Below, piece by piece: positions 9,758 to 38,053 of a stretch of 64,000 bases of DNA. The position numbers and the translations under genes are program-made. The stretch is from Escherichia phage 308Ecol101PP. Numbering within the stretch: position 1 is the first letter of the stretch; each line of letters starts with the position of its first letter. The DNA is taken from the sequence record OR062945.1. The stretch is one strand, 5' to 3'. The notes under the pieces were generated by a model. The model saw only the letters and a program-made list of their open reading frames with translations. It searched no databases and was not told the origin of the DNA.

Positions 9758-10393
9758 ATGAAAACTACTCCTATTACTATCGCTATTGACGCAATCATAA
9801 AACAAGCTTCTTCTTTGGCCGCTATGGCCAAAGTAATTAGTCAAAACCCTGCTCGTTATAATGCTATTCTAGAAACTCTTCGACGCCCAGGACTTAGTAA
9901 TTATGAAAGCCGAGTAATTATTACAGGTGTTGGTAAGAATGCTAATATTGCAACTAAAGCTTCTGAGACATTTGCTTCACTTGGTATCCCGAGTATGTAC
10001 TTGAACACTGGGCATTATTCTCACGGTGATGCAGGATTCATTGCGCCTAATGATGTGTTGATTCATATTAGTCGTTCTGGTAAAACTGAAGAAATGATAG
10101 GCGTGGCTAAGCATCTTAAAATGATTCGTCCGAACGTCAAACAGATTCTGTTGCATTGTAACCCGGACATTCCACAAGAATACGAAGCTCTTTTTGATTA
10201 TACGTTCTGTACAGGCATCGCAGTAGAGGTTGATGAGAATTCTCTGGCTCCGACCATGTCCACTACATTGTTGTTAGCGCTTATCGATACGTTTGCTATC
10301 AACCTTTCGTCTGAACGTGGATTTACCTCTAATGACTTCCTTAAGTTCCACCCTGGTGGTGCACTAGGTGCCATGTTACGAGGCGAACAATGA
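9758..10393 (+). CDS. SIS-domain sugar-phosphate isomerase, KdsD/GutQ-type (arabinose-5-phosphate isomerase-like), no CBS domains
   Basis: 211 aa; motifs TGVGKNANIATKASETFASLG, HGDAG, SRSGKTEE typical of KdsD-type SIS domains; not a T4 gene. Confidence 0.7.
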   Translation: MKTTPITIAIDAIIKQASSLAAMAKVISQNPARYNAILETLRRPGLSNYESRVIITGVGKNANIATKASETFASLGIPSMYLNTGHYSHGDAGFIAPNDVLIHISRSGKTEEMIGVAKHLKMIRPNVKQILLHCNPDIPQEYEALFDYTFCTGIAVEVDENSLAPTMSTTLLLALIDTFAINLSSERGFTSNDFLKFHPGGALGAMLRGEQ

Positions 10394-10533
10394 AAGCAAT
10401 AACAATAGGACTTTTACTATTGATGCTTGTCATGACTATCTACTGGAGCTTAACGGCTCCAGTAATGATTCCGACTCTTATAATCGGATGGATTATGATT
10501 GGACTACAAGCAAAGTATGAATGCTTTAACTAG
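10390..10533 (+). CDS. small hydrophobic membrane peptide (47 aa)
   Basis: ATGA overlap with SIS gene stop; MKAITIGLLLLMLVMTIYWSLTAPVMIPTLIIGWIMIGLQ...; below ORF-track cutoff. Confidence 0.4.
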   Translation: MKAITIGLLLLMLVMTIYWSLTAPVMIPTLIIGWIMIGLQAKYECFN

Positions 10534-10574
10534 AATAGTGTACAATACTCCTACTTACCAATGAGGACCACAAC

Positions 10575-12260
10575 ATGAAAAAAGCTGTTATTCTTGGTGC
10601 TGGACTGGCAACTCGTTTGTATCCAATAACGCATCATATTCCTAAGGTGCTTGTTAACTATAAACAAGACACTATTCTGAGCAATTTGTATACAATTTAT
10701 TCTGACCTTGGCGCAGATGAAATTATTGTAGTAGTTCATTCAAAATTTGCTGAAACTGTTCGAGCTTATTGTGAGCAAGAAGGGTTCAATGTGACTATTC
10801 GTACAGTTGATGAAGCGTATGGTTCTGCTTATGCTCTTGCTAAATTGCACAAAGATTTAGACGGCCATAATGTAATTGTTAACTGGTGTGATATTATTCC
10901 TGATTTTGGTTCGTGGTCTTGGAATGTTAACGCAATCTATGTTAAGGGTGACGAATGTCGATATAATTTCGACGGTGAAAATATCACTAATGTAGGTTCA
11001 ACAGGTGGTAATGTTGTAGGAATTTATCAGTTCAAAGACTGGGAATTCTATATGGGTTCTACTGATGAGGAAATTCATGAATACTGCAAAGGACGTGATT
11101 TCGTAGAATTCCTTTACGGCAGCGCATTCAATAAATCAGAGCTTATGAATCTAATTGATTTAGGTGATATGCCTAAACTTGAAAAAGCTCATGAAGTTCG
11201 TGAACTTAATCGTAGTTTTAATGCAGTTGAAATTGGTGAAGAAACTGTAACTAAATTCGCATTAACCGAACAGGGCCGAGCTCTTCAGAAAGATGAGATT
11301 TCATGGTATCTTAAAGTGAAATCAGATTCAGTTCCTCAGTTAGTTTCTGTTAATGAAAATAACTTTGAAATGGAACGCATTAAAGGTAAGCCGGCATTTG
11401 AATATATTAAATCCAAATCAAGTCTTGCTCGTCCACAAATTGTTGATGCAATTTTAGATGCACTGAAATTCAGCACAGACACTTATTTTGTAAGTCCTGA
11501 AACTGTTCGTCGTGATTTCACTAAAGAATTCTATACTAAAGTTATTGATCGTTGTGAAAGTATTCAACCATTGATTGATTCATTTGGTAAAATCACACAT
11601 GTGAACTACACTAAGATTGGGCGTCTGAAGCCAATGTTGAAACAAGCTTTAGAACACCTTATTCGTTATCATAACCGTTCTCAGGGACAGTACTCTGTTA
11701 TTCATGGTGACCCGAACTTCAGTAATACTATGATTACTGATAATGGTGAAGTCAAGTTTATCGACCCTCGTGGATATTTTGGTGAAACCAAGATTTATGG
11801 GCCAAAATTGTATGATGAAGCTAAAGTGCTTTACGCTGTTTCAGGTTATGATGAATTCAACGCTAATCCGACTTGGGGACAGTTTACTATTGATGAAACA
11901 ACTTGTAATGTGACTATTAACATCAATCCGTTAGTTTACAAATATGGAAAGATGAGTTCGTTTAACGAGTATCATCATTTGGCAGTGGCAATTATCTGGA
12001 TTGCATTAGGTGGTTATTTCAAGAATAATCCACTTAAAGCGGTAGCCGCATATTATAAAGGTATGGAACTTCTGACTAAGCAATTACGTAATATGGGCCG
12101 TGTACTTCAGGACGGCACTATTAGTTATGATGTAGCAGAACCTGTAACGGCTACTCTGATTACAAAAAATCCTGGTAAATGGGTACTAACTGATAAAGAA
12201 ACTGGTGTTTCTTATCGTCCAATCGGTGGCGATATCACTCATCAATGGGAACGAATCTAA
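10575..12260 (+). CDS. bifunctional protein: N-terminal sugar-1-phosphate nucleotidyltransferase (RmlA/GalU-like) fused to C-terminal APH/choline-kinase-like sugar kinase
   Basis: 561 aa; N-terminal GAGLATRLYPIT (RmlA signature G-x-G-T-R-L-x-P-I-T) ; C-terminal HGDPNFSNTMI...IDPRGYFG (Brenner motif plus DxxG of kinase-like phosphotransferases). Confidence 0.7.
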   Translation: MKKAVILGAGLATRLYPITHHIPKVLVNYKQDTILSNLYTIYSDLGADEIIVVVHSKFAETVRAYCEQEGFNVTIRTVDEAYGSAYALAKLHKDLDGHNVIVNWCDIIPDFGSWSWNVNAIYVKGDECRYNFDGENITNVGSTGGNVVGIYQFKDWEFYMGSTDEEIHEYCKGRDFVEFLYGSAFNKSELMNLIDLGDMPKLEKAHEVRELNRSFNAVEIGEETVTKFALTEQGRALQKDEISWYLKVKSDSVPQLVSVNENNFEMERIKGKPAFEYIKSKSSLARPQIVDAILDALKFSTDTYFVSPETVRRDFTKEFYTKVIDRCESIQPLIDSFGKITHVNYTKIGRLKPMLKQALEHLIRYHNRSQGQYSVIHGDPNFSNTMITDNGEVKFIDPRGYFGETKIYGPKLYDEAKVLYAVSGYDEFNANPTWGQFTIDETTCNVTININPLVYKYGKMSSFNEYHHLAVAIIWIALGGYFKNNPLKAVAAYYKGMELLTKQLRNMGRVLQDGTISYDVAEPVTATLITKNPGKWVLTDKETGVSYRPIGGDITHQWERI

Positions 12261-12646
12261 TGCACCGTGTAAAAAACATGCTTAATCTTTGTTTTGATGT
12301 CGATGATTGTATAACAGAGTGGAATAACAATCGTGATTACGTGAACTTCAAACCAGACGTCGAAATGGTGTCTGCCATTAATGCCCTGTATGATGCAGGG
12401 CATACCATAACGCTTTACACTGCTCGCGGTATGAAGTCAGTAGGTCCTGGTCGTATAGCAATTGACATTCTCCCAAGTCTGATTCAGAACTTGGCAAACA
12501 TTGGATTGAAGTACCATAATTTGCTAACACATAAACCAGTATATGATTGGATTATCGACGACAAAGCTATGCGTCCTGACGAATTCAAAGCTCTTATGAA
12601 TAAAGGCGAATTCGAAACATTTAAATCATATAAACCGAATCTATAA
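12260..12646 (+). CDS. small cap-less HAD-superfamily phosphatase-like protein
   Basis: 128 aa from ATG 12260 (TAATG overlap; ORF track starts at 12245); motif I FDVDD, motif II LYTAR, Lys (HKP), motif IV WIIDDK. Confidence 0.55.
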   Translation: MHRVKNMLNLCFDVDDCITEWNNNRDYVNFKPDVEMVSAINALYDAGHTITLYTARGMKSVGPGRIAIDILPSLIQNLANIGLKYHNLLTHKPVYDWIIDDKAMRPDEFKALMNKGEFETFKSYKPNL

Positions 12647-12692: not shown

Positions 12693-13868
12693 ATGCAAAA
12701 AAAAAAAATGAATACTTTTAAAATCGGAACGAATTTTGATTTAGCTCTTCTTGATAAAATCGTAGAGCTCAATAAAACTTATCCTAATAGCTTGATAAAC
12801 GAAGTATACGGCTCTACAAGAGAAATGGCTTTTGTAGCAGCCAGACCTGATTTTAGGCTTCCTGACGTTGACAAAAAGATGTTAGAAGATTACGTTAAAC
12901 GTTGTAACGAATTAGGTATTTGCTTTAACTATACACTCAACACGATAAATCCTGGTTCAAAAAGAGAACTAGTTGAGTGGAAGAAGAAAGCTATTCAGGA
13001 TTATGTTCAGTATCTTTGGTCAATAGGCGTATGGCGTATTACTATCGCTAACCCTGTTGTTATGGAAATTGTTCGTGAAGTCAATAAAGACATTGAGATT
13101 GAAGTTTCAACAATTCTACATGTCGATGCTGTAACTCAAATCAAATACTTGCATGACCAATATAATATCAAAAAGGTCTGCTGTGGAATTCATAAGAACC
13201 GTTCAGTTTCTTTCCTGAAACGTGCAGCAGAGTTTTGTAATAAGAACAATATAATATTTGAAGTTCTTGTAAATGAGTTCTGTTCTAATGCTGGTAAAGG
13301 GTACACAACACATTGTAGCTATCGTGACTCTTGCTATATTTTCCATAGCACCGATGTTACAGTAGATGATGCCAAATCCTTAAATGGATATCCAATGCAA
13401 CACTGTATTAAAGCTCGTGATACAGATCCATTTAACTGGTTGAGAACTCGTTTTGTTCGTCCTCAAGATTTGAAACTTTATAATGATATTGGTATCACTC
13501 AATTTAAAGTTTCAGGACGTACAGGTAGCACCGACTACATTTTAAAAGTTCTTGAAGCTTACGCTTCTGAAAAGTTTGAAGGTAATTTGTTGGAATTGTG
13601 GAAGCCTTTAGAGACCATTTTCACTCTTGAAAATGAGACTGAGTTTTCACATACGGTAAATATTGAAACCTCTTTGTTAGACGGCTTTTTAGAAAAAAGG
13701 TGGTTCAAACATCCAGATTTCGATTGTGCTAATGAAATCTGCGGGACGACGTGTACATATTGTGAAAGATATTATAAACGTCAGTTATCTAAAAATGGGT
13801 TATCAGAAAACTCTATATCTATTATTGATATAACTAACTCTGATGACGCTTTGAGGTACCCAGAATGA
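12693..13868 (+). CDS. U32-family (peptidase U32 / UbiU-UbiV / RlhA-like) putative Fe-S protein
   Basis: 391 aa; U32-like blocks (ICFNYTLNT; EVLVNEFCSNAGKGYTTHCSY; FKVSGRTGS resembling the K-I-E-G-R motif); C-terminal CxxxCxxC (CGTTCTYC); alternative start ATG 12708 after an A12 run. Confidence 0.55.
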   Translation: MQKKKMNTFKIGTNFDLALLDKIVELNKTYPNSLINEVYGSTREMAFVAARPDFRLPDVDKKMLEDYVKRCNELGICFNYTLNTINPGSKRELVEWKKKAIQDYVQYLWSIGVWRITIANPVVMEIVREVNKDIEIEVSTILHVDAVTQIKYLHDQYNIKKVCCGIHKNRSVSFLKRAAEFCNKNNIIFEVLVNEFCSNAGKGYTTHCSYRDSCYIFHSTDVTVDDAKSLNGYPMQHCIKARDTDPFNWLRTRFVRPQDLKLYNDIGITQFKVSGRTGSTDYILKVLEAYASEKFEGNLLELWKPLETIFTLENETEFSHTVNIETSLLDGFLEKRWFKHPDFDCANEICGTTCTYCERYYKRQLSKNGLSENSISIIDITNSDDALRYPE

Positions 13869-14026
13869 TTTCTAGAAAAACTTTTAACCACCAACTTAAC
13901 GAAGAGATTTTGACTATTAAAATTAACAGCAACGAACAAATTCTTAAAAAGGCCCTTATGGGCCTGTTTGAAACTAAAGCGGCTAAAGTGATTAAAGAAA
14001 CCTGTTCAACTAGAATACTACGCTGA
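13865..14026 (+). CDS. small hypothetical protein (53 aa)
   Basis: ATGA overlap with preceding stop; below ORF-track cutoff. Confidence 0.3.
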   Translation: MISRKTFNHQLNEEILTIKINSNEQILKKALMGLFETKAAKVIKETCSTRILR

Positions 14027-14105
14027 TGCATTTCTTCATAGTGTTCTTGGAAATATCGATGCTGAAGCTTTACGTTATATCAACATCGCTAAGAAATTCA
14101 AATAA

Positions 14106-14128
14106 GCTTTATGAATTGAGTATATAAT
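14106..14128 (+). promoter_or_regulatory. putative MotA-dependent middle promoter upstream of gene 42 homologue
   Basis: GCTTTA (MotA-box-like) 11 nt upstream of TATAAT. Confidence 0.35.
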
Positions 14129-14146
14129 AACTGTATTGAGGTAAAC

Positions 14147-14863
14147 ATGGGAAAACATAACACAATGAAATATATTAAAGCCGCAGATTTTCAATCCGCA
14201 TTTAAAGCTGTCAATCGTGAAATTTTAGAAAATCCACAGTTCGTTACTGATTCTCGTATTGGACGTTGTAATGAAATTGGGTCTATGACAGTAGTTGTTG
14301 ATACCCCTTCATCATTCAAAATGACCGACCCACGTATTAATCGCATCTCTTATGAATATGCTGAAGATTTCTGGAAATTTATGATTTCTGGTGGTACTGA
14401 TGCAAAAGAAGCATTTAAGGCATATCCTAACGTTGCTAAATTTATTTCTAAACCTAAATCAGACGCTTTGCCTGCAAACTTCAACACTTTCTATGGTCCA
14501 CGAATTGCGGCCCAGTTACCAGCTCTTCTCAAAGAACTTAAAGAGAAACCTAATTCACGAAGAGTTGTGTTTCAAATTCTTGAAAGTTCAGATCAGGCTT
14601 TGCTTGATTCGGATGAAACGCTTGAATATCCATGTACTGACTCAGTGACTTATTATATTCGTGATGGTAAGCTTTATACCCACTGTCATATGCGTTCTCA
14701 GAACTGTGCTGTTGTTATGCAGTTGGATTTTTATCTCCAAGGAAAATTACTTCATTATATCGCTAACGAATGTGGTGTAGAAGTTGGTGATTATACTCAT
14801 ACCATGGTAAGTGCCCATGTGTTTGAACGTGATTTTGATTATGTTAAAGGATTCCTTGACTAA
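14147..14863 (+). CDS. 42: thymidylate-synthase-fold deoxynucleotide hydroxymethylase, gp42 (dCMP hydroxymethylase) homologue
   Basis: 238 aa; NSRRVVFQ, EYPCTDSVTYYIRDGKLYTHCHMRSQN, VSAHVFERDF align with T4 gp42/TS active-site blocks as recalled; T4 gene order. Confidence 0.7.
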   Translation: MGKHNTMKYIKAADFQSAFKAVNREILENPQFVTDSRIGRCNEIGSMTVVVDTPSSFKMTDPRINRISYEYAEDFWKFMISGGTDAKEAFKAYPNVAKFISKPKSDALPANFNTFYGPRIAAQLPALLKELKEKPNSRRVVFQILESSDQALLDSDETLEYPCTDSVTYYIRDGKLYTHCHMRSQNCAVVMQLDFYLQGKLLHYIANECGVEVGDYTHTMVSAHVFERDFDYVKGFLD

Positions 14864-15762
14864 TGGCTATTTTCCGCGTACCTATCTTGAGTATGCGGTC
14901 TTATGAAACTGGACAGTATGCTATCCTTAAGGATGGCAACTTCCAACTTCATTTGCACCGTGCTAATCCGGGTGATGTGATTACATATCCACGTAATGCA
15001 TCTGATATTAAAGAATGCGAACGTCTTTTTCCAGAATTTAAGTTTGTTCCATTATGGTATAAAGATAACGCGTATAACACTCGTAAATATTTCTGGTCTG
15101 AAAATGAATTTGTGGTTGATTCATTAATTGCTTATTATGATTGTGATTTTCTAATCACAGATATCACTGGATATGACGGCGCTTTTGATGTGGAATTCAA
15201 TTTCAATATCACTGCAGACCCTAATAAACCACGTTTTTATATTGACGAATTCTTAAAAACCGACATGTTGTCGGTTAATCGTTCACTTCAAACTACTGTG
15301 TTGAATGAACGTCAAAAAGAAGTGCTGGTTAACGCAGGTGCAGATGGTAATAAGATTATCGTAACCCAGAAAGTTATACGTCCTTCCATCATGCAGCGTC
15401 TTGTAGGTGATTTGGCTCCTATTCATCTAGATGGTATTTTTCATCCATTTCGAATTAGTGACCCGTGCTATCGTTTTGAACAAGTGGTTGAATGTGCAAT
15501 TCAATTAGGTCAACCGCTTTATATAACTGATCCAAATAATAGTTTCGACAGAAATAAGTATCCTGAAGAAGCGCTGATTCGAATTTTTAATCCAACTAAA
15601 ACTGAGTACTATCAAATTCTTAAAGGACGTCCGAAGATTCAATATTTCGAAAATCCTGAAGAAGTATTCCATCCAGGTCTTGGTGAGTTCATCTACTTTA
15701 ATGCTTTAATTTCTTCGCCGTATAATATACCTAAATACGAAGATGTCGTAATCGAGGAATAA
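14863..15762 (+). CDS. hypothetical protein in the position of T4 beta-glucosyltransferase (299 aa), no recognisable similarity to beta-gt
   Basis: TAATG coupled start after gene 42 homologue; no motif recognised. Confidence 0.5.
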   Translation: MAIFRVPILSMRSYETGQYAILKDGNFQLHLHRANPGDVITYPRNASDIKECERLFPEFKFVPLWYKDNAYNTRKYFWSENEFVVDSLIAYYDCDFLITDITGYDGAFDVEFNFNITADPNKPRFYIDEFLKTDMLSVNRSLQTTVLNERQKEVLVNAGADGNKIIVTQKVIRPSIMQRLVGDLAPIHLDGIFHPFRISDPCYRFEQVVECAIQLGQPLYITDPNNSFDRNKYPEEALIRIFNPTKTEYYQILKGRPKIQYFENPEEVFHPGLGEFIYFNALISSPYNIPKYEDVVIEE

Positions 15763-15763
15763 A

Positions 15764-16312
15764 ATGGTTAAAATTATTTTAGTAGATGGCCCGGATAATG
15801 CCGGTAAAACAACTTTCATTAATGACATAATGGAAATTAGTGAAAGATATGTAAAGATTGATTTCCCTAAACGAACAGTTGATGGACGTTTCGATGTTAA
15901 GTCTCGAAATGAAGTTGGCTGTTTCGAAACGATGTTGAATTATTTAGACCCTACTAAGATTTATCTGTTAGACCGTGGATATATTAGTAACTGGGTTTAT
16001 GGACGTATTCGACAAGATGCGGACTCGGTTCTTGACGTTTATGAACAGGATTATGTTCGTCTTTGCCAAAACCATGATGTGTTCACAATTATTTTAACAC
16101 GTAACGAAATGACTGAAAGTTTTGAAGACGACCTTATTACTTTGTCTTCATTCGGTTTTAATACAGTCATTTCATATTTTGAAGAGTTTGCAATTCATAA
16201 CAAAATCCAAACGTATCAATTACTTAATCATGACGGTGCTAACAAAGTTATAGGATTTAATGCAAGCGAACGTAATTATTTGATTACAGAAATTATCAAA
16301 TGGGCTCGTTAA
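15764..16312 (+). CDS. P-loop NTPase, putative nucleoside/nucleotide kinase-like protein
   Basis: 182 aa; Walker A LVDGPDNAGKTT at N-terminus, size typical of dNMP/dNK kinases. Confidence 0.5.
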   Translation: MVKIILVDGPDNAGKTTFINDIMEISERYVKIDFPKRTVDGRFDVKSRNEVGCFETMLNYLDPTKIYLLDRGYISNWVYGRIRQDADSVLDVYEQDYVRLCQNHDVFTIILTRNEMTESFEDDLITLSSFGFNTVISYFEEFAIHNKIQTYQLLNHDGANKVIGFNASERNYLITEIIKWAR

Positions 16313-16330
16313 GAGCCTGTTTAAAGTTTT

Positions 16331-16358
16331 AAATGCTGTATAACCCTTAGTATATAAT
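16331..16358 (+). promoter_or_regulatory. putative middle promoter upstream of uvsX
   Basis: AAATGCTGTA (MotA-box-like) 12 nt upstream of TATAAT. Confidence 0.35.
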
Positions 16359-16411
16359 CGTCTTATCTTTTAAACATGAGTAAAATATAATGATGCCTAT
16401 GGAAAAATACA

Positions 16412-17584
16412 ATGTCTGATTTAAAATCTCGTCTGATTAAAGCTTCTACTTCTAAAATGACTGCAGACTTGACTAAGTCTAAGCTGTTTAATAATCGTGA
16501 TGAAGTCCCTACTCGTATTCCGATGTTGAATATTGCATTAGGTGGTGCACTGAATGCCGGGTTGCAATCAGGCTTAACTATTTTTGCTGCTCCTTCTAAA
16601 CACTTTAAAACGTTGTTTGGGCTGACCATGGTTGCAGCATATATGAAGAAATATAAAGATGCAATTTGTTTGTTCTATGATTCAGAATTTGGTGCTTCAG
16701 AATCTTATTTTCGTTCAATGGGTGTTGATTTAGACCGTGTAGTTCATACTCCTATTCAATCTGTCGAACAACTTAAAGTTGATATGACTAATCAGCTTGA
16801 CGCGATTGAACGTGGTGATAAAGTTATTATCTTTATCGATTCAATCGGTAATACTGCATCTAAGAAAGAAACCGAAGATGCGTTGAACGAGAAAGTCGTA
16901 GGTGATATGTCTCGTGCTAAGGCACTTAAATCTCTTTTCCGTATTGTGACCCCGTATCTGACTATTAAAGATATTCCGTGTGTTGCAATTAACCATACAG
17001 CAATGGAAATCGGCGGATTGTATCCTAAAGAGATTATGGGCGGTGGTACAGGTATTCTTTATTCTGCCAACACGGTATTTTTTATCTCTAAACGTCAGGT
17101 TAAAGAAGGCACAGAATTGACCGGTTATGACTTCACGTTGAAAGCAGAAAAATCTCGAACCGTTAAAGAAAAATCTACTTTCCCAATCACGGTTAATTTT
17201 GATGGTGGTATCGACCCATTCAGTGGCTTGTTAGAAATGGCAACTGAAATTGGTTTTGTAGTTAAGCCTAAAGCCGGGTGGTATGCTCGAGAATTCCTTG
17301 ACGAAGAAACAGGCGAAATGATTCGTGAAGAAAAATCATGGCGTGCTAAAGCTACTGATTGTGTAGAATTCTGGGGACCGTTGTTTAAACACAAACCTTT
17401 CCGAGACGCAATTGAAACTAAATATAAACTAGGTGCTATCTCTTCTATTAAAGAAGTTGATGACGCTGTTAATGACCTTATTAATTGCAAAGCAACAACT
17501 AAAGTTCCGGTTAAAACTTCTGATGCACCGTCTGCAGCAGATATAGAAAACGACCTTGACGAAATGGAAGATTTCGATGAATAA
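16412..17584 (+). CDS. uvsX: UvsX recombinase (RecA/Rad51 family)
   Basis: 390 aa; Walker A-like FAAPSKHFKT, Walker B-like VIIFIDSIGN, acidic C-terminal tail; T4 gene order. Confidence 0.95.
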   Translation: MSDLKSRLIKASTSKMTADLTKSKLFNNRDEVPTRIPMLNIALGGALNAGLQSGLTIFAAPSKHFKTLFGLTMVAAYMKKYKDAICLFYDSEFGASESYFRSMGVDLDRVVHTPIQSVEQLKVDMTNQLDAIERGDKVIIFIDSIGNTASKKETEDALNEKVVGDMSRAKALKSLFRIVTPYLTIKDIPCVAINHTAMEIGGLYPKEIMGGGTGILYSANTVFFISKRQVKEGTELTGYDFTLKAEKSRTVKEKSTFPITVNFDGGIDPFSGLLEMATEIGFVVKPKAGWYAREFLDEETGEMIREEKSWRAKATDCVEFWGPLFKHKPFRDAIETKYKLGAISSIKEVDDAVNDLINCKATTKVPVKTSDAPSAADIENDLDEMEDFDE

Positions 17585-19888: not shown

Positions 19889-20206
19889 ATGAAAACCATC
19901 GATTGTAAAGCAGAATTTAAGATTTTTTATCACGGTTCAAGTAGTTCAGCTAACATCGAAAACATGCTTTGTCCTCCTGAGGAAACAGGAGTTCTGTCTG
20001 AAACCGGACGTAAGAAAAACTTGGATCGTGTATTCTTTACTGAAGATATCGGTTTAGCAAAGATTTATGCAGGACGAGCAGCACGCTCTTATGGAGGTGA
20101 ACCACGTCTCTATCGAGTAATTTCTCCGGTAGACGTAGTTCAAATGAATGATACTAAAGGTGCTACAGTTTATCACGCTGAATGGGCATTTTGTGAGGAA
20201 ATATGA
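19889..20206 (+). CDS. hypothetical protein (105 aa) with H-G-S ... Y ... E residues
   Basis: ORF with SD GGAGAACAAA; FYHGSS, IYAGRA, YHAEW blocks. Confidence 0.5.
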   Translation: MKTIDCKAEFKIFYHGSSSSANIENMLCPPEETGVLSETGRKKNLDRVFFTEDIGLAKIYAGRAARSYGGEPRLYRVISPVDVVQMNDTKGATVYHAEWAFCEEI

Positions 20207-24298: not shown

Positions 24299-24386
24299 AA
24301 TATCTCCTTAGTTACCTATTATTTATTACGCTTTATAAAATTAATGTTAGAATTAACTCTCTTATACTGAATTGAAAGGAAAAATA

Positions 24387-24908
24387 ATGGCACACTTTAA
24401 CGAATGTTCACAACTTATTTCTGGTGTTGATAAAGCAGAAGAAGCTTATTTTAATGCTCTGATTCACGAAGATAAAGACCCACTTCAGGTAATGCTTGAT
24501 ATGCAGAAATCTTTACAGGTTCGTTTGGCAAATGACAAGCCTGAACATAACAAACATCCTGATGAATTGGCCACTGCAGGCGACGTTGTTGATTGGCTGC
24601 GTAATCAGAAAGATTATATTGATGATGAATTCCGTGAACTGCTGACTTCACTTGGTGGTATGAGCAATGGTGAAAAAGCCGCCAGCAGTGTATGGAAGCC
24701 GTGGAAAGCACAACATGCTGAATATCGTAATCGTCGTATCGATGAACTGTCTCCTGAAGACCAGCTTGAAATTAAATTTGAGATGATTGATATTCTGCAC
24801 TTCGTTCTGAACATGTTCCAAGGTCTGGGTCTTTCTGCTGAAGAAATCTTTAAACTGTATTATCTGAAGAATGCTGAAAACTTTGCTCGTCAAGACCGAG
24901 GTTATTAA
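24387..24908 (+). CDS. 56: gp56 dCTPase/dCTP pyrophosphatase (MazG-like)
   Basis: 173 aa from ATG 24387 (ORF track starts earlier at 24372); MAHFNEC..., DEFRELLTSLG, IDILHFVLNMF, C-terminal KNAENFARQDRGY match T4 gp56 as recalled. Confidence 0.85.
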   Translation: MAHFNECSQLISGVDKAEEAYFNALIHEDKDPLQVMLDMQKSLQVRLANDKPEHNKHPDELATAGDVVDWLRNQKDYIDDEFRELLTSLGGMSNGEKAASSVWKPWKAQHAEYRNRRIDELSPEDQLEIKFEMIDILHFVLNMFQGLGLSAEEIFKLYYLKNAENFARQDRGY

Positions 24909-36952: not shown

Positions 36953-38053
36953 ATGAAAGTTATGTTTATCCCATCTCGCGCAGTCCCATTTAATCCTGAC
37001 CGTGTACAAGGTGGTCTTGAAGCAGTACATTTAAATGTGTTGAAATATCTTGTGTCCATCGGTGCTGATATTGATTATATCGGCTTTGATAATGACACGT
37101 TTGGTGACTGGAAAGTTACACACCATCCTGTTGGTCATCTGACTAAATTTAGTCTAGGTATGAGTTATACTATGGCTCGTAAGATTGTTGAACTAGCCGG
37201 CATCCATGAATACGATTTTGTTGTTACTATGGAACCGACTAAACTAACCGTTCAGGCAATTAAAGACGCAGGTCTCTCTAAAGTTCATAAGAATTTTATG
37301 GCAACACCATTTGAACCGGTATCTCGTGGCATTGTTCAAATTTGGGACCAGACTATTCAAATTCATAAGAATGGTGGTAAGAGTTATGCTCCTACTAAAG
37401 CCTTCCGTGAATTTGAACGCAAATATTGTTATATGACTTCAGGTCTGACTGACAAAATTGATTATGATTATTGGCGAGCAAATCCGTTGTTTGAAGCCGA
37501 AGATTATCCGGTTATTTGTTTGAATGAGAAACCTGAAGTTCTTCCGGCGACTGATCTGATTATTAGTGCACAACGTTATGACACTAAAATGCGTCGTACT
37601 GATGTTGCTCTTGAAGCGATTAAAGCACTAGGCGAAAATGGTGTAGGATACTGTCCAAGCAAATGGGCACCACCAGCTAAATATCCTGTTATTATTGATG
37701 CTCCACACAGTGAAATCATGGAACGTCTTAAAACAGCTAAAGCGCTTATTAATACGTGTCCTGACACAGGTACGGTAGAGAATAGTTCTATTGAAGCCAT
37801 CTCTAAAGGTGTCCCTGTAATCCAGTTAGTTTTTAAGGATTATCCTCATGCGACATTCGAATACGACCCAGATACTGTGCGTGTAGAAATTGATTCCTCT
37901 ACTCCTAAGAAAGAAGTAGTTGCGCTTTACACAAAAGCTGTATTAGAATTCACTGACACATACGAAGCTCGAGTTAAACGTGCTGAAGCAGTATGGAAGA
38001 AGTATAACCGAGATGCAGTTGTTGCGATGTGGGATAAAATCTTCACAGCGTAA
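36953..38053 (+). CDS. GT-B fold glycosyltransferase (GT4-like), candidate DNA hydroxymethylcytosine glycosyl (pentosyl) transferase
   Basis: 366 aa; C-terminal GT-B donor-binding pattern CPDTGTVENSSIEAISKGVPVI (E-x7-E); located between gene 39 and rIIA. Confidence 0.6.
   Translation: MKVMFIPSRAVPFNPDRVQGGLEAVHLNVLKYLVSIGADIDYIGFDNDTFGDWKVTHHPVGHLTKFSLGMSYTMARKIVELAGIHEYDFVVTMEPTKLTVQAIKDAGLSKVHKNFMATPFEPVSRGIVQIWDQTIQIHKNGGKSYAPTKAFREFERKYCYMTSGLTDKIDYDYWRANPLFEAEDYPVICLNEKPEVLPATDLIISAQRYDTKMRRTDVALEAIKALGENGVGYCPSKWAPPAKYPVIIDAPHSEIMERLKTAKALINTCPDTGTVENSSIEAISKGVPVIQLVFKDYPHATFEYDPDTVRVEIDSSTPKKEVVALYTKAVLEFTDTYEARVKRAEAVWKKYNRDAVVAMWDKIFTA

Follow-up and report, generated by a model that had tools for sequence, protein, structure and literature searches.

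Which enzymes occupy the slot between gene 42 and uvsX in Escherichia phage 308Ecol101PP, where T-even phages carry a DNA glucosyltransferase, and which DNA modification do they serve? We addressed this question computationally in a 64,000-nucleotide stretch of the phage sequence (OR062945.1; the window), in which two plus-strand open reading frames (ORFs) of 299 and 182 amino acids (aa) lie at 14863..15762 and 15764..16312. Both had been singled out, with exactly these limits (14863-16312), in a first reading made from the letters alone (the sequence-only reading). We put at roughly 0.6 the probability that the locus is a synthase-glycosyltransferase-kinase module for glycosylated 5-hydroxycytosine DNA, in which the 299-aa protein, modelled as a compact GT-B fold glycosyltransferase (GT), would attach the first arabinose, and the 182-aa protein, a P-loop nucleotide kinase of the thymidylate kinase (TMPK) superfamily, would phosphorylate a modified deoxycytidylate (dCMP). 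The locus, the fold-based assignments and the pathway role have already been published (Thomas et al. 2018; Lee et al. 2026), and our account is a rediscovery; its own additions are modest, namely that the GT appears to follow the base, that the base bears as many sugars as there are GT genes, and that the kinase lacks the thymine-reading Arg.

The gene directly upstream (14147..14863, plus strand) encodes a 238-aa thymidylate synthase (TS) homologue with a Pfam Thymidylat_synt match. It is 100% identical to a protein of phage HY126 and matches PDB entries 9iqc/9ir2 with an E-value of 1.7e-163, and 9iqu as well. 5-Hydroxy-dCMP (5hodCMP) synthase function has been shown for the HY126 enzyme and for gene product (gp) 48 of RB69 (Lee et al. 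2026). Judged by this identity, the TS homologue is a flavin/O2-dependent 5hodCMP synthase and not a dCMP hydroxymethylase; it is the gene earlier labelled the gp42 homologue. It follows that the nucleotide relevant to the pathway is 5hodCMP rather than hydroxymethyl-dCMP. The proposed kinase for a modified nucleotide is retained, as a TMPK-superfamily member within the module, with a different probable substrate.

The base of the RB69/HX01/HY126 group is arabinosyl-5-hydroxycytosine and not glucosyl-hydroxymethylcytosine. Arabinose was detected on RB69 DNA together with an eight-gene module that has no T4 homologues and extends from the polymerase gene to uvsX, where T4 has β-gt (Thomas et al. 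2018), and a later study showed arabinosyl-5-hydroxycytosine in RB69 DNA and listed arabinosyltransferase 1 (gp46:47) and a nucleotide kinase (gp45) among the RB69 gene products (Lee et al. 2026). Both target genes lie inside this published cluster of RB69-like phages, which bears out the suggestion of a swapped DNA-modification locus; the chemistry is 5-hydroxycytosine arabinosylation instead of hydroxymethylcytosine glucosylation, and the sugar is arabinose, provided by genes just upstream.

The gene order in the window, TS homologue (14147), GT (14863), kinase (15764), uvsX (16412) and gene 41 (17928), agrees with the annotated HY126 and HX01 records, and across the 2.3-kb block identity to the Mosigvirus phages SSE1, HY126, PHB12, HX01 and others of the RB69 group is 98-98.7%, which places the phage in Mosigvirus. 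Bas46/47 are likewise nearly identical to the window. In RB51 a β-glucosyl-α-glucosyl-transferase (βα-gt) homologue is encoded between 42 and uvsX, and T4 β-gt has the same location (Thomas et al. 2018); the assignment of the two ORFs to the β-gt slot is therefore correct. The stop codon of the TS homologue and the start codon of the 299-aa ORF overlap in the sequence TAATG (gacTAATGgct), the coupling noted earlier, and the 299-aa stop is separated from the 182-aa ATG by a 1-nt spacer (TAA-a-ATG). A consensus scan of 13800-16450 for sigma-70 promoters and terminators returned fewer sites than the shuffled expectation and no internal signal in the block, and the T4 late-promoter motif TATAAATA was not found on either strand of 13001-17000. 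We therefore read synthase, GT and kinase as one co-transcribed, translationally coupled unit. Both ORFs are evidently genuine genes and not chance ORFs, since homologues occur in 348 (GT) and 343 (kinase) phage records and share many invariant residues.

Phage ST2 has a counterpart of the 299-aa protein at 100% identity and HY126 one at 99%, and the protein was fairly called unrecognisable. Searches of Pfam and of PDB sequences (by phmmer and with the family profile) gave nothing, NCBIfam gave a chance-level match only, and the sole database match was PHROG 3891, of "unknown function". A homology search returned 138 cluster representatives, not one of which has a name or a Pfam domain, and a second search with the family profile returned 186 proteins, none annotated and none with a Pfam domain; among 51 diverse family members Pfam produced zero matches and zero glycosyltransferase signal. 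A solved structure was found in the PDB for neither the 299-aa nor the 182-aa protein. The family assignment was made by fold comparison, all sequence-based routes having failed.

The AlphaFold2 model built on the 51-sequence alignment (predicted local distance difference test 94.8, predicted template modelling score 0.89) displays two Rossmann-like β/α/β domains with an interdomain cleft, as expected for a compact GT-B glycosyltransferase. Most invariant polar residues of the protein reside in the N-terminal domain (~1-185), including S10-M-R-S13, K23-D-G-N26, R33, Y66, R74, T99-D-I-T-G-Y104, Y126 and D128; it is here that the acceptor site of GT-B enzymes is usually found. The C-terminal domain is shrunk to ~100 residues. 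There, the invariant R197 follows the strand 192-194, and the invariant H270-P271-G272 opens the helix 271-278; by their place in the model, R197 may be a donor-binding Arg and the H270 helix may correspond to the GT4 EX7E site. Identity to GT4-type GT-B enzymes (sucrose-phosphate synthase 6kih, BshA, PimA, WaaG) is 7-12%, with no Pfam or profile match, and the first Glu of EX7E is apparently an invariant His in this family. Fold comparison, the check proposed by the sequence-only reading for both proteins, thus returned a GT-B fold for the larger and a TMPK-like kinase for the smaller.

Two possible kinships of the 299-aa protein were tried and rejected: hhalign gave 0.3% for the RB51 βα-gt-like protein and 0.6% for the phage's own 366-aa GT, to which BLASTP likewise showed no relation. 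In RefSeq, its homologue in HX01 (NC_018855.1 gp146), IME341 and C6 is labelled "RNA polymerase binding protein", and NC_055742.1 is also among the public records with doubtful annotation.

RB69 gp46:47, DLP3 gp79 and TH1_063 of Shewanella phage Thanatos belong to the same family as the 299-aa protein (hereafter GT299). In the RB69 reference a sequencing error divides the gp46:47 gene, which is intact here. Identity is 45.6% to DLP3 gp79 and 47.2% to TH1_063, with 98-100% coverage. For the latter a different activity has been reported: purified TH1_063 incubated with UTP and xylose-1-phosphate yielded UDP-xylose in vitro, and no transfer was seen to plasmid DNA, dCMP, dCTP or cytosine (Thanatos study). 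As TH1_063 is a true orthologue at 47% identity and has the same place after the TS homologue, the 299-aa protein might by the same token be a UDP-pentose pyrophosphorylase (sugar-1-phosphate uridylyltransferase). We regard this as highly improbable, given its modelled GT-B fold and the fact that the cluster already has an NTP_transferase-domain protein, the reported UDP-arabinose pyrophosphorylase. The Thanatos acceptors had no 5-hydroxyl, which makes the negative transfer result uninformative, and GT299 tracks the 5-hydroxycytosine synthase even in a phage of the Pootjesviridae, where the sugar, by reference to RL38J1, is a different one.

The Pootjesviridae case also bears on which sugar a GT299 glycosyltransferase would add. 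In the Pootjesviridae phage RL38J1 the base-proximal sugar on 5-hydroxycytosine is galactose, and synteny across the family is strong (Lee et al. 2026). Rhizobium phage RHph_N34, of the same family, encodes a GT299 member directly after the TS homologue (hhalign 98.9%, E 2e-17, 248 columns), which shares the motifs SMRSYETG, DGN, PFRxxD and TDPN. GT299 therefore probably follows the acceptor base and not the donor sugar, since a member is present in Pootjesviridae, where RL38J1 attaches galactose instead of arabinose; tracking the base rather than the sugar is what is expected of a base-proximal transferase.

The number of sugars agrees with this. The second glycosyltransferase of the window, a 366-aa protein at 36953..38053 (plus strand; RB69 gp3 equivalent), is virtually identical to PDB 9iqz/9ir0, "phage HY126 glycosyltransferase" (E 4.7e-251), and gave no match in a Pfam search. 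Its family (GT366) was detected in 211 phage records, fewer than the 348 of GT299; it has one copy in Mosigvirus and two in Acinetobacter phages, and was not found in the Shewanella, Klebsiella, Serratia, Proteus or Yersinia phage records. Thanatos has one sugar, a 299-type GT and zero 366-type copies; RB69 has two sugars, a 299-type GT and one 366-type copy; and DLP3 has three sugars, a 299-type GT and two 366-type copies. The sugar number thus equals GT299 plus the copy number of GT366. Addition of the third arabinose on DNA has been demonstrated for DLP3 gp76/gp77, both 366-type (Lee et al. 2026). Most likely it is the 299-aa enzyme, a putative 5-hydroxycytosine arabinosyltransferase, that attaches the first, base-proximal sugar, and the 366-aa GT probably adds the second arabinose. 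The proposal of a second, non-canonical glycosyltransferase therefore survives as regards the glycosyltransferase, with the order reversed: the second one is encoded at 36953..38053.

The 182-aa protein was predicted to carry an N-terminal Walker A motif and to be of nucleotide-kinase size, and its motifs prove to be those of the TMPK superfamily. Beginning with MVKIILVDGPDNAGKTT (Walker A), it has the NMP-kinase fold and is closest to TMPK, and not to T4 gp1 (1dek), in either fold or sequence. A full-database profile search recovered 291 kinase relatives (45 at E <= 1e-10) among 1.84 billion representatives. In a 41-sequence alignment G9, G14, K15, D70 and R71 are invariant and D11, K36, S75, N76, Y79, R113, D122, D123 and N133 are at least 90% conserved, the P-loop residues being G9, D11 (the TMPK Asp), G14, K15 and T16. 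The profile of these 41 sequences reached SPbeta YorR (3e-9) and yeast TMPK (5e-9) in the PDB, followed by the Aquifex, vaccinia and Staphylococcus aureus TMPKs (to 2e-7; S. aureus over residues 2-173). EGLDRTGKTT of yeast TMPK was aligned with EGPDNAGKTT, KFPERST with FPKRT, and MDRYVYSGVAY, again of yeast TMPK, with LDRGYISNWVY, which correspond to the P-loop Asp, FPxR and DR-x-x-S-x-x-x-Y motifs. This broader alignment (A3) was needed before the PDB TMPKs were reached; with a narrow profile, hmmsearch and hhalign aligned only the P-loop of Escherichia coli Tmk. These motifs identify the protein, at the level of sequence, as a dNMP kinase of the TMPK superfamily. RB69 gp45 and DLP3 gp78 are its orthologues, with the same position after the GT and the same TMPK-like fold matches, and identity is 97-99% within Mosigvirus and ~46% to Acinetobacter phage proteins.

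Is it then an ordinary dTMP kinase with no specific tie to cytosine modification? The TMPK fold and motifs are present, and PHROG 761 and many GenBank records are annotated "thymidylate kinase". The Pfam Thymidylate_kin threshold is nevertheless never reached: the protein gave no PF02223 match, 13 of 23 relatives match weakly (best E 2e-4, <27 bits), and TIGR00041 scored 15 bits where 83 are required. The Arg of the TMPK F-x-x-x-R motif contacts thymine O4 and confers thymine specificity. The residue opposite it in the 182-aa kinase is E50 when yeast TMPK is aligned and N49 when the Aquifex enzyme is; no Arg occurs at positions 49/50 in the 41 sequences, and position 50 is Glu/Asp in 29 of them. 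The kinase further differs from TMPKs (E. coli Tmk, yeast Cdc8, vaccinia A48) in its short LID with the single conserved Arg113 and in its conserved DD motif. The absent thymine-reading Arg would fit a cytosine-type base, much as the Asn-to-Asp switch does in the TS family. The gene sits inside the modification module, a genomic context that ties it, unlike the TMPKs, to cytosine modification, and its 343 records show the same genus breakdown as the 348 of the GT, as far as genus counts can tell. Moreover, these phages already carry a gp1-like kinase, which is T4's dTMP enzyme (Lee et al. 2026). An ordinary dTMP kinase is accordingly improbable, and the function we infer is that of a kinase for a modified deoxycytidylate, most simply 5hodCMP.

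The distant relatives of the kinase raise another possibility. Several of them (P0179, P0180, P0185, P0187, P0189, P0194, P0196, P0235 and P0253) are two-domain proteins of 309-357 aa in which an N-terminal kinase precedes a DNA-glycosylase-like domain, a weak HhH-GPD match in P0179 and P0180 and a uracil-DNA glycosylase (UDG)-superfamily match of 7e-11 in P0253; P0179 has a further match in its C-terminal part, to a hypothetical protein from cyanophage S-TIM54. Such fusions echo the pairing of 5-HMUDK with aGPT-Pplase and would suit an enzyme like the 5-hydroxymethyldeoxyuridine (5-hmdU) DNA kinases of phages that hypermodify thymidine, phosphorylating 5-hydroxycytosine or its sugar in the polymer. 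In hhalign the kinase scored 81.6% (E 1e-5) with the 5-HMUDK M6 gp54, a value close to the 77-78% for E. coli Tmk, but the similarity to M6 gp54 is essentially confined to the P-loop, and the P0179 kinase domain matches only phage genes of the 182-aa kinase type, and not M6 or ViI. The mature base has no reported phosphate, and the ether oxygen comes from the 5-hydroxyl, so that leaving-group activation is unneeded. A kinase acting on DNA is hence hardly to be expected here. M6 gp54 (NC_007809.1 gp054), a proven 5-hmdU DNA kinase, is named "terminase small subunit" in RefSeq; this name and that of the GT homologue look like propagated misannotations.

Returning to the deoxycytidylate kinase, its linkage to synthase and GT was followed in two ways. 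The phage records, compared as counts by genus, number 375 for the TS type, 348 for the 299-aa family and 343 for the kinase, with the same genus breakdown, and the three genes thus appear to co-occur across hundreds of phages. Among 55 IMG/VR viral loci encoding a GT299 relative, the TS homologue lies directly upstream of the GT in 46, and the kinase directly downstream in 31, elsewhere in the locus in 11 and undetected nearby in 10. Given this tight co-inheritance of GT and kinase with the synthase, we reject unrelated cargo, the other option that had been offered for the two proteins. A phage-encoded NDP-sugar supply accompanies the GT, comprising a SIS isomerase, an NTP_transferase/kinase and a HAD phosphatase at 9758-12646. 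The module has been rearranged at least once with all parts kept, as the kinase is relocated upstream in several T4-like lineages. In these lineages (L004-L006, L010-L014, L019, L024, L025) the kinase, 37-42% identical, stands beside a HAD phosphatase, and uvsX comes directly after the GT. In Tenacibaculum phage PTm1 the genes adjoining the TS homologue are unrelated to the GT299 and kinase families.

The pathway we propose would run as follows. The synthase makes 5hodCMP from dCMP, a step shown by others, and the 182-aa kinase would phosphorylate the modified deoxycytidylate, most simply 5hodCMP to its diphosphate, and would share with the T4-gp1-like dNMP kinase the task of supplying the dNTP pool. 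The upstream isomerase, kinase/pyrophosphorylase and phosphatase would provide UDP-arabinose, from which the 299-aa GT would place the first, base-proximal arabinofuranose onto the cytosine 5-hydroxyl, most likely after incorporation of the base into DNA, the order followed by T4 glucosylation. The 366-aa GT would then add the second arabinose, and the end product would be the restriction-enzyme-resistant di-arabinosyl-5-hydroxycytosine DNA of RB69-like phages.

Several points weigh against this pathway. The individual DLP3 GTs, gp79 included, were inactive on 5-hydroxycytosine DNA with UDP-arabinofuranose or UDP-arabinopyranose, and whether the first sugar goes onto the mononucleotide or onto DNA was not distinguishable (Lee et al. 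2026); TH1_063 reportedly makes UDP-xylose and glycosylated neither DNA nor nucleotides (Thanatos study). The literature covered, to which He et al. 2026 and Mahler et al. 2025 did not belong, does not show an activity of the 299-aa or the 182-aa protein, and no sequence-level link of the 299-aa family to any GT family was found in Pfam, the PDB or profiles. On the kinase side, the Arg-to-Glu argument is drawn from a hidden Markov model alignment that is ambiguous by one residue, and the close subfamily has an invariant Arg at position 48. In addition, the gp1-like RB69 gp159 converts 5hodCMP to 5hodCDP in vitro (Lee et al. 2026), so that another kinase for this conversion seems superfluous. 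The 182-aa protein would then be either a second dedicated 5hodCMP kinase or an enzyme for a substrate that the gp1-like kinase cannot handle.

The second option is the core of a pre-replicative route, in which the GT arabinosylates free 5hodCMP, the 182-aa kinase is dedicated to the bulky arabinosyl-5-hydroxy-dCMP, and the polymerase uses the glycosylated dCTP. It would explain both the GT inactivity on 5-hydroxycytosine DNA and the retention of a second kinase, and, if true, would be the first nucleotide glycosylation before replication in any virus. Nucleotide-level addition was left open when the DLP3 orthologue alone proved inactive on 5-hydroxycytosine DNA (Lee et al. 2026), a second, pathway-linked kinase exists even though the gp1-like kinase phosphorylates 5hodCMP, and the three genes of the module are inherited together and coupled in translation. 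A weak hint is the acidity of the GT299 family, whose median isoelectric point is 5.2, compared with 5.7-7.7 for DLP3 gp76/gp77, which act on DNA, and the RB51 βα-gt-like protein, which presumably does, a small contrast. Against this, the characterised phage DNA glycosylations are all post-replicative (T4 paradigm; Thomas et al. 2018, Lee et al. 2026), 5-hydroxydeoxycytidine enters DNA with only the synthase and a dNMP kinase expressed (Lee et al. 2026), and the 42-uvsX slot holds DNA-acting glucosyltransferases in T-even phages. NDP kinase and polymerase would need to accept a 5-O-pentosyl dCTP, and the kinase is apart from the GT in 11 and undetected near it in 10 of the 55 loci. We consider the pre-replicative route unlikely, if less so than the other alternatives, and retain arabinosylation on DNA.

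Arabinosylation on DNA would presumably share the logic of the T-even GTs, UDP-sugar-dependent decoration of a 5-substituted cytosine. T4 β-glucosyltransferase and T2/T6 β-α-glucosyltransferase occupy the same slot, with the GT-B architecture also found in the T4 α/β GTs, and T4 gp1 (RB69 gp159) is likewise a phage dNMP kinase for modified dCMP, gp159 phosphorylating 5hodCMP. In contrast, the T-even acceptor is hydroxymethylcytosine, whereas here it is 5-hydroxycytosine with the ether link directly to the ring; the sugar is arabinofuranose from a phage-made donor, unlike that of the T-even glucosyltransferases; and the 299-aa GT is shorter than the T-even GTs, its C-terminal domain being reduced. 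Arabinosyl-5-hydroxycytosine is a recently recognised DNA hypermodification that makes T4-like phages, among them those of the RB69 type and those of Acinetobacter, resistant to restriction enzymes and to some CRISPR systems, and many phages that carry it are therapy candidates. The 299-aa GT and the 182-aa kinase represent the least characterised pathway steps, as regards the first-sugar enzyme, its substrate and the reason for a second kinase.

The sugar-supply genes are all on the plus strand. A SIS protein (9758..10393; Pfam SIS 1.7e-10; RB69 gp55 equivalent) resembles arabinose-5-phosphate isomerase, under which name the gene is annotated in HX01 and HY126, and would supply arabinose 5-phosphate. 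It is followed by a 561-aa candidate bifunctional sugar kinase/NDP-sugar pyrophosphorylase (10575..12260; HY126 AfhE and RB69 gp52:53 equivalent), 97% identical to the HY126 protein, with a Pfam NTP_transferase match in its N-terminal part and weak APH/choline-kinase-like matches in its C-terminal part, and by a 133-aa HAD-like phosphatase (12245..12646; PHROG 1238; RB69 gp51 equivalent), 99% identical to HY126 AfhF. According to the summary of He et al. 2026 given in Lee et al. 2026, AfhE is an arabinose-5-phosphate kinase/UDP-arabinose pyrophosphorylase and AfhF a pathway phosphatase.

Two genes upstream of the GT, with a small annotated ORF in between, lies the gene of a 391-aa peptidase-U32-family protein (12693..13868, plus strand; Pfam Peptidase_U32 6.6e-11). 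The presence of 5-hydroxycytidine and 5-hydroxyuridine in rRNA and tRNA is determined by RlhA and TrhP, both of the U32 family, and by analogy the presence of a U32 protein within a 5-hydroxycytosine DNA cluster is suggestive. The gene is found in only part of the phages carrying the synthase-GT-kinase trio. Its RB69 equivalent, gp50, is given as "sugar or heterocycle reductase" (Lee et al. 2026, Table 1). One locus, L048, belongs to an unrelated type of phage whose replicase is a Pol III alpha. Here the genes for a TMPK-like kinase (hhalign 95.7%), a member of the GT299 family (99.93%) and a U32 homologue (L048:6954-8051) are adjacent, and no TS homologue was found in the 12.8 kb of L048 sequence, an arrangement that may reflect an alternative hydroxylation route; the U32 observation also covers L049 and L053.

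Further downstream, a 105-aa ORF at 19889-20206 (plus strand), beyond gene 41, is the equivalent of HX01 gp153, annotated "ADP-ribosyl transferase". An ORF at 24372-24908 (plus strand), listed from a TTG with the real start probably a few codons downstream, encodes a dCTPase-type NTP pyrophosphohydrolase (Pfam dUTPase_2/PRA-PH; "nucleoside triphosphate pyrophosphohydrolase" in HX01) and corresponds to the step of RB69 gp28 (T4 gp56-like), the supply of dCMP to the pathway.

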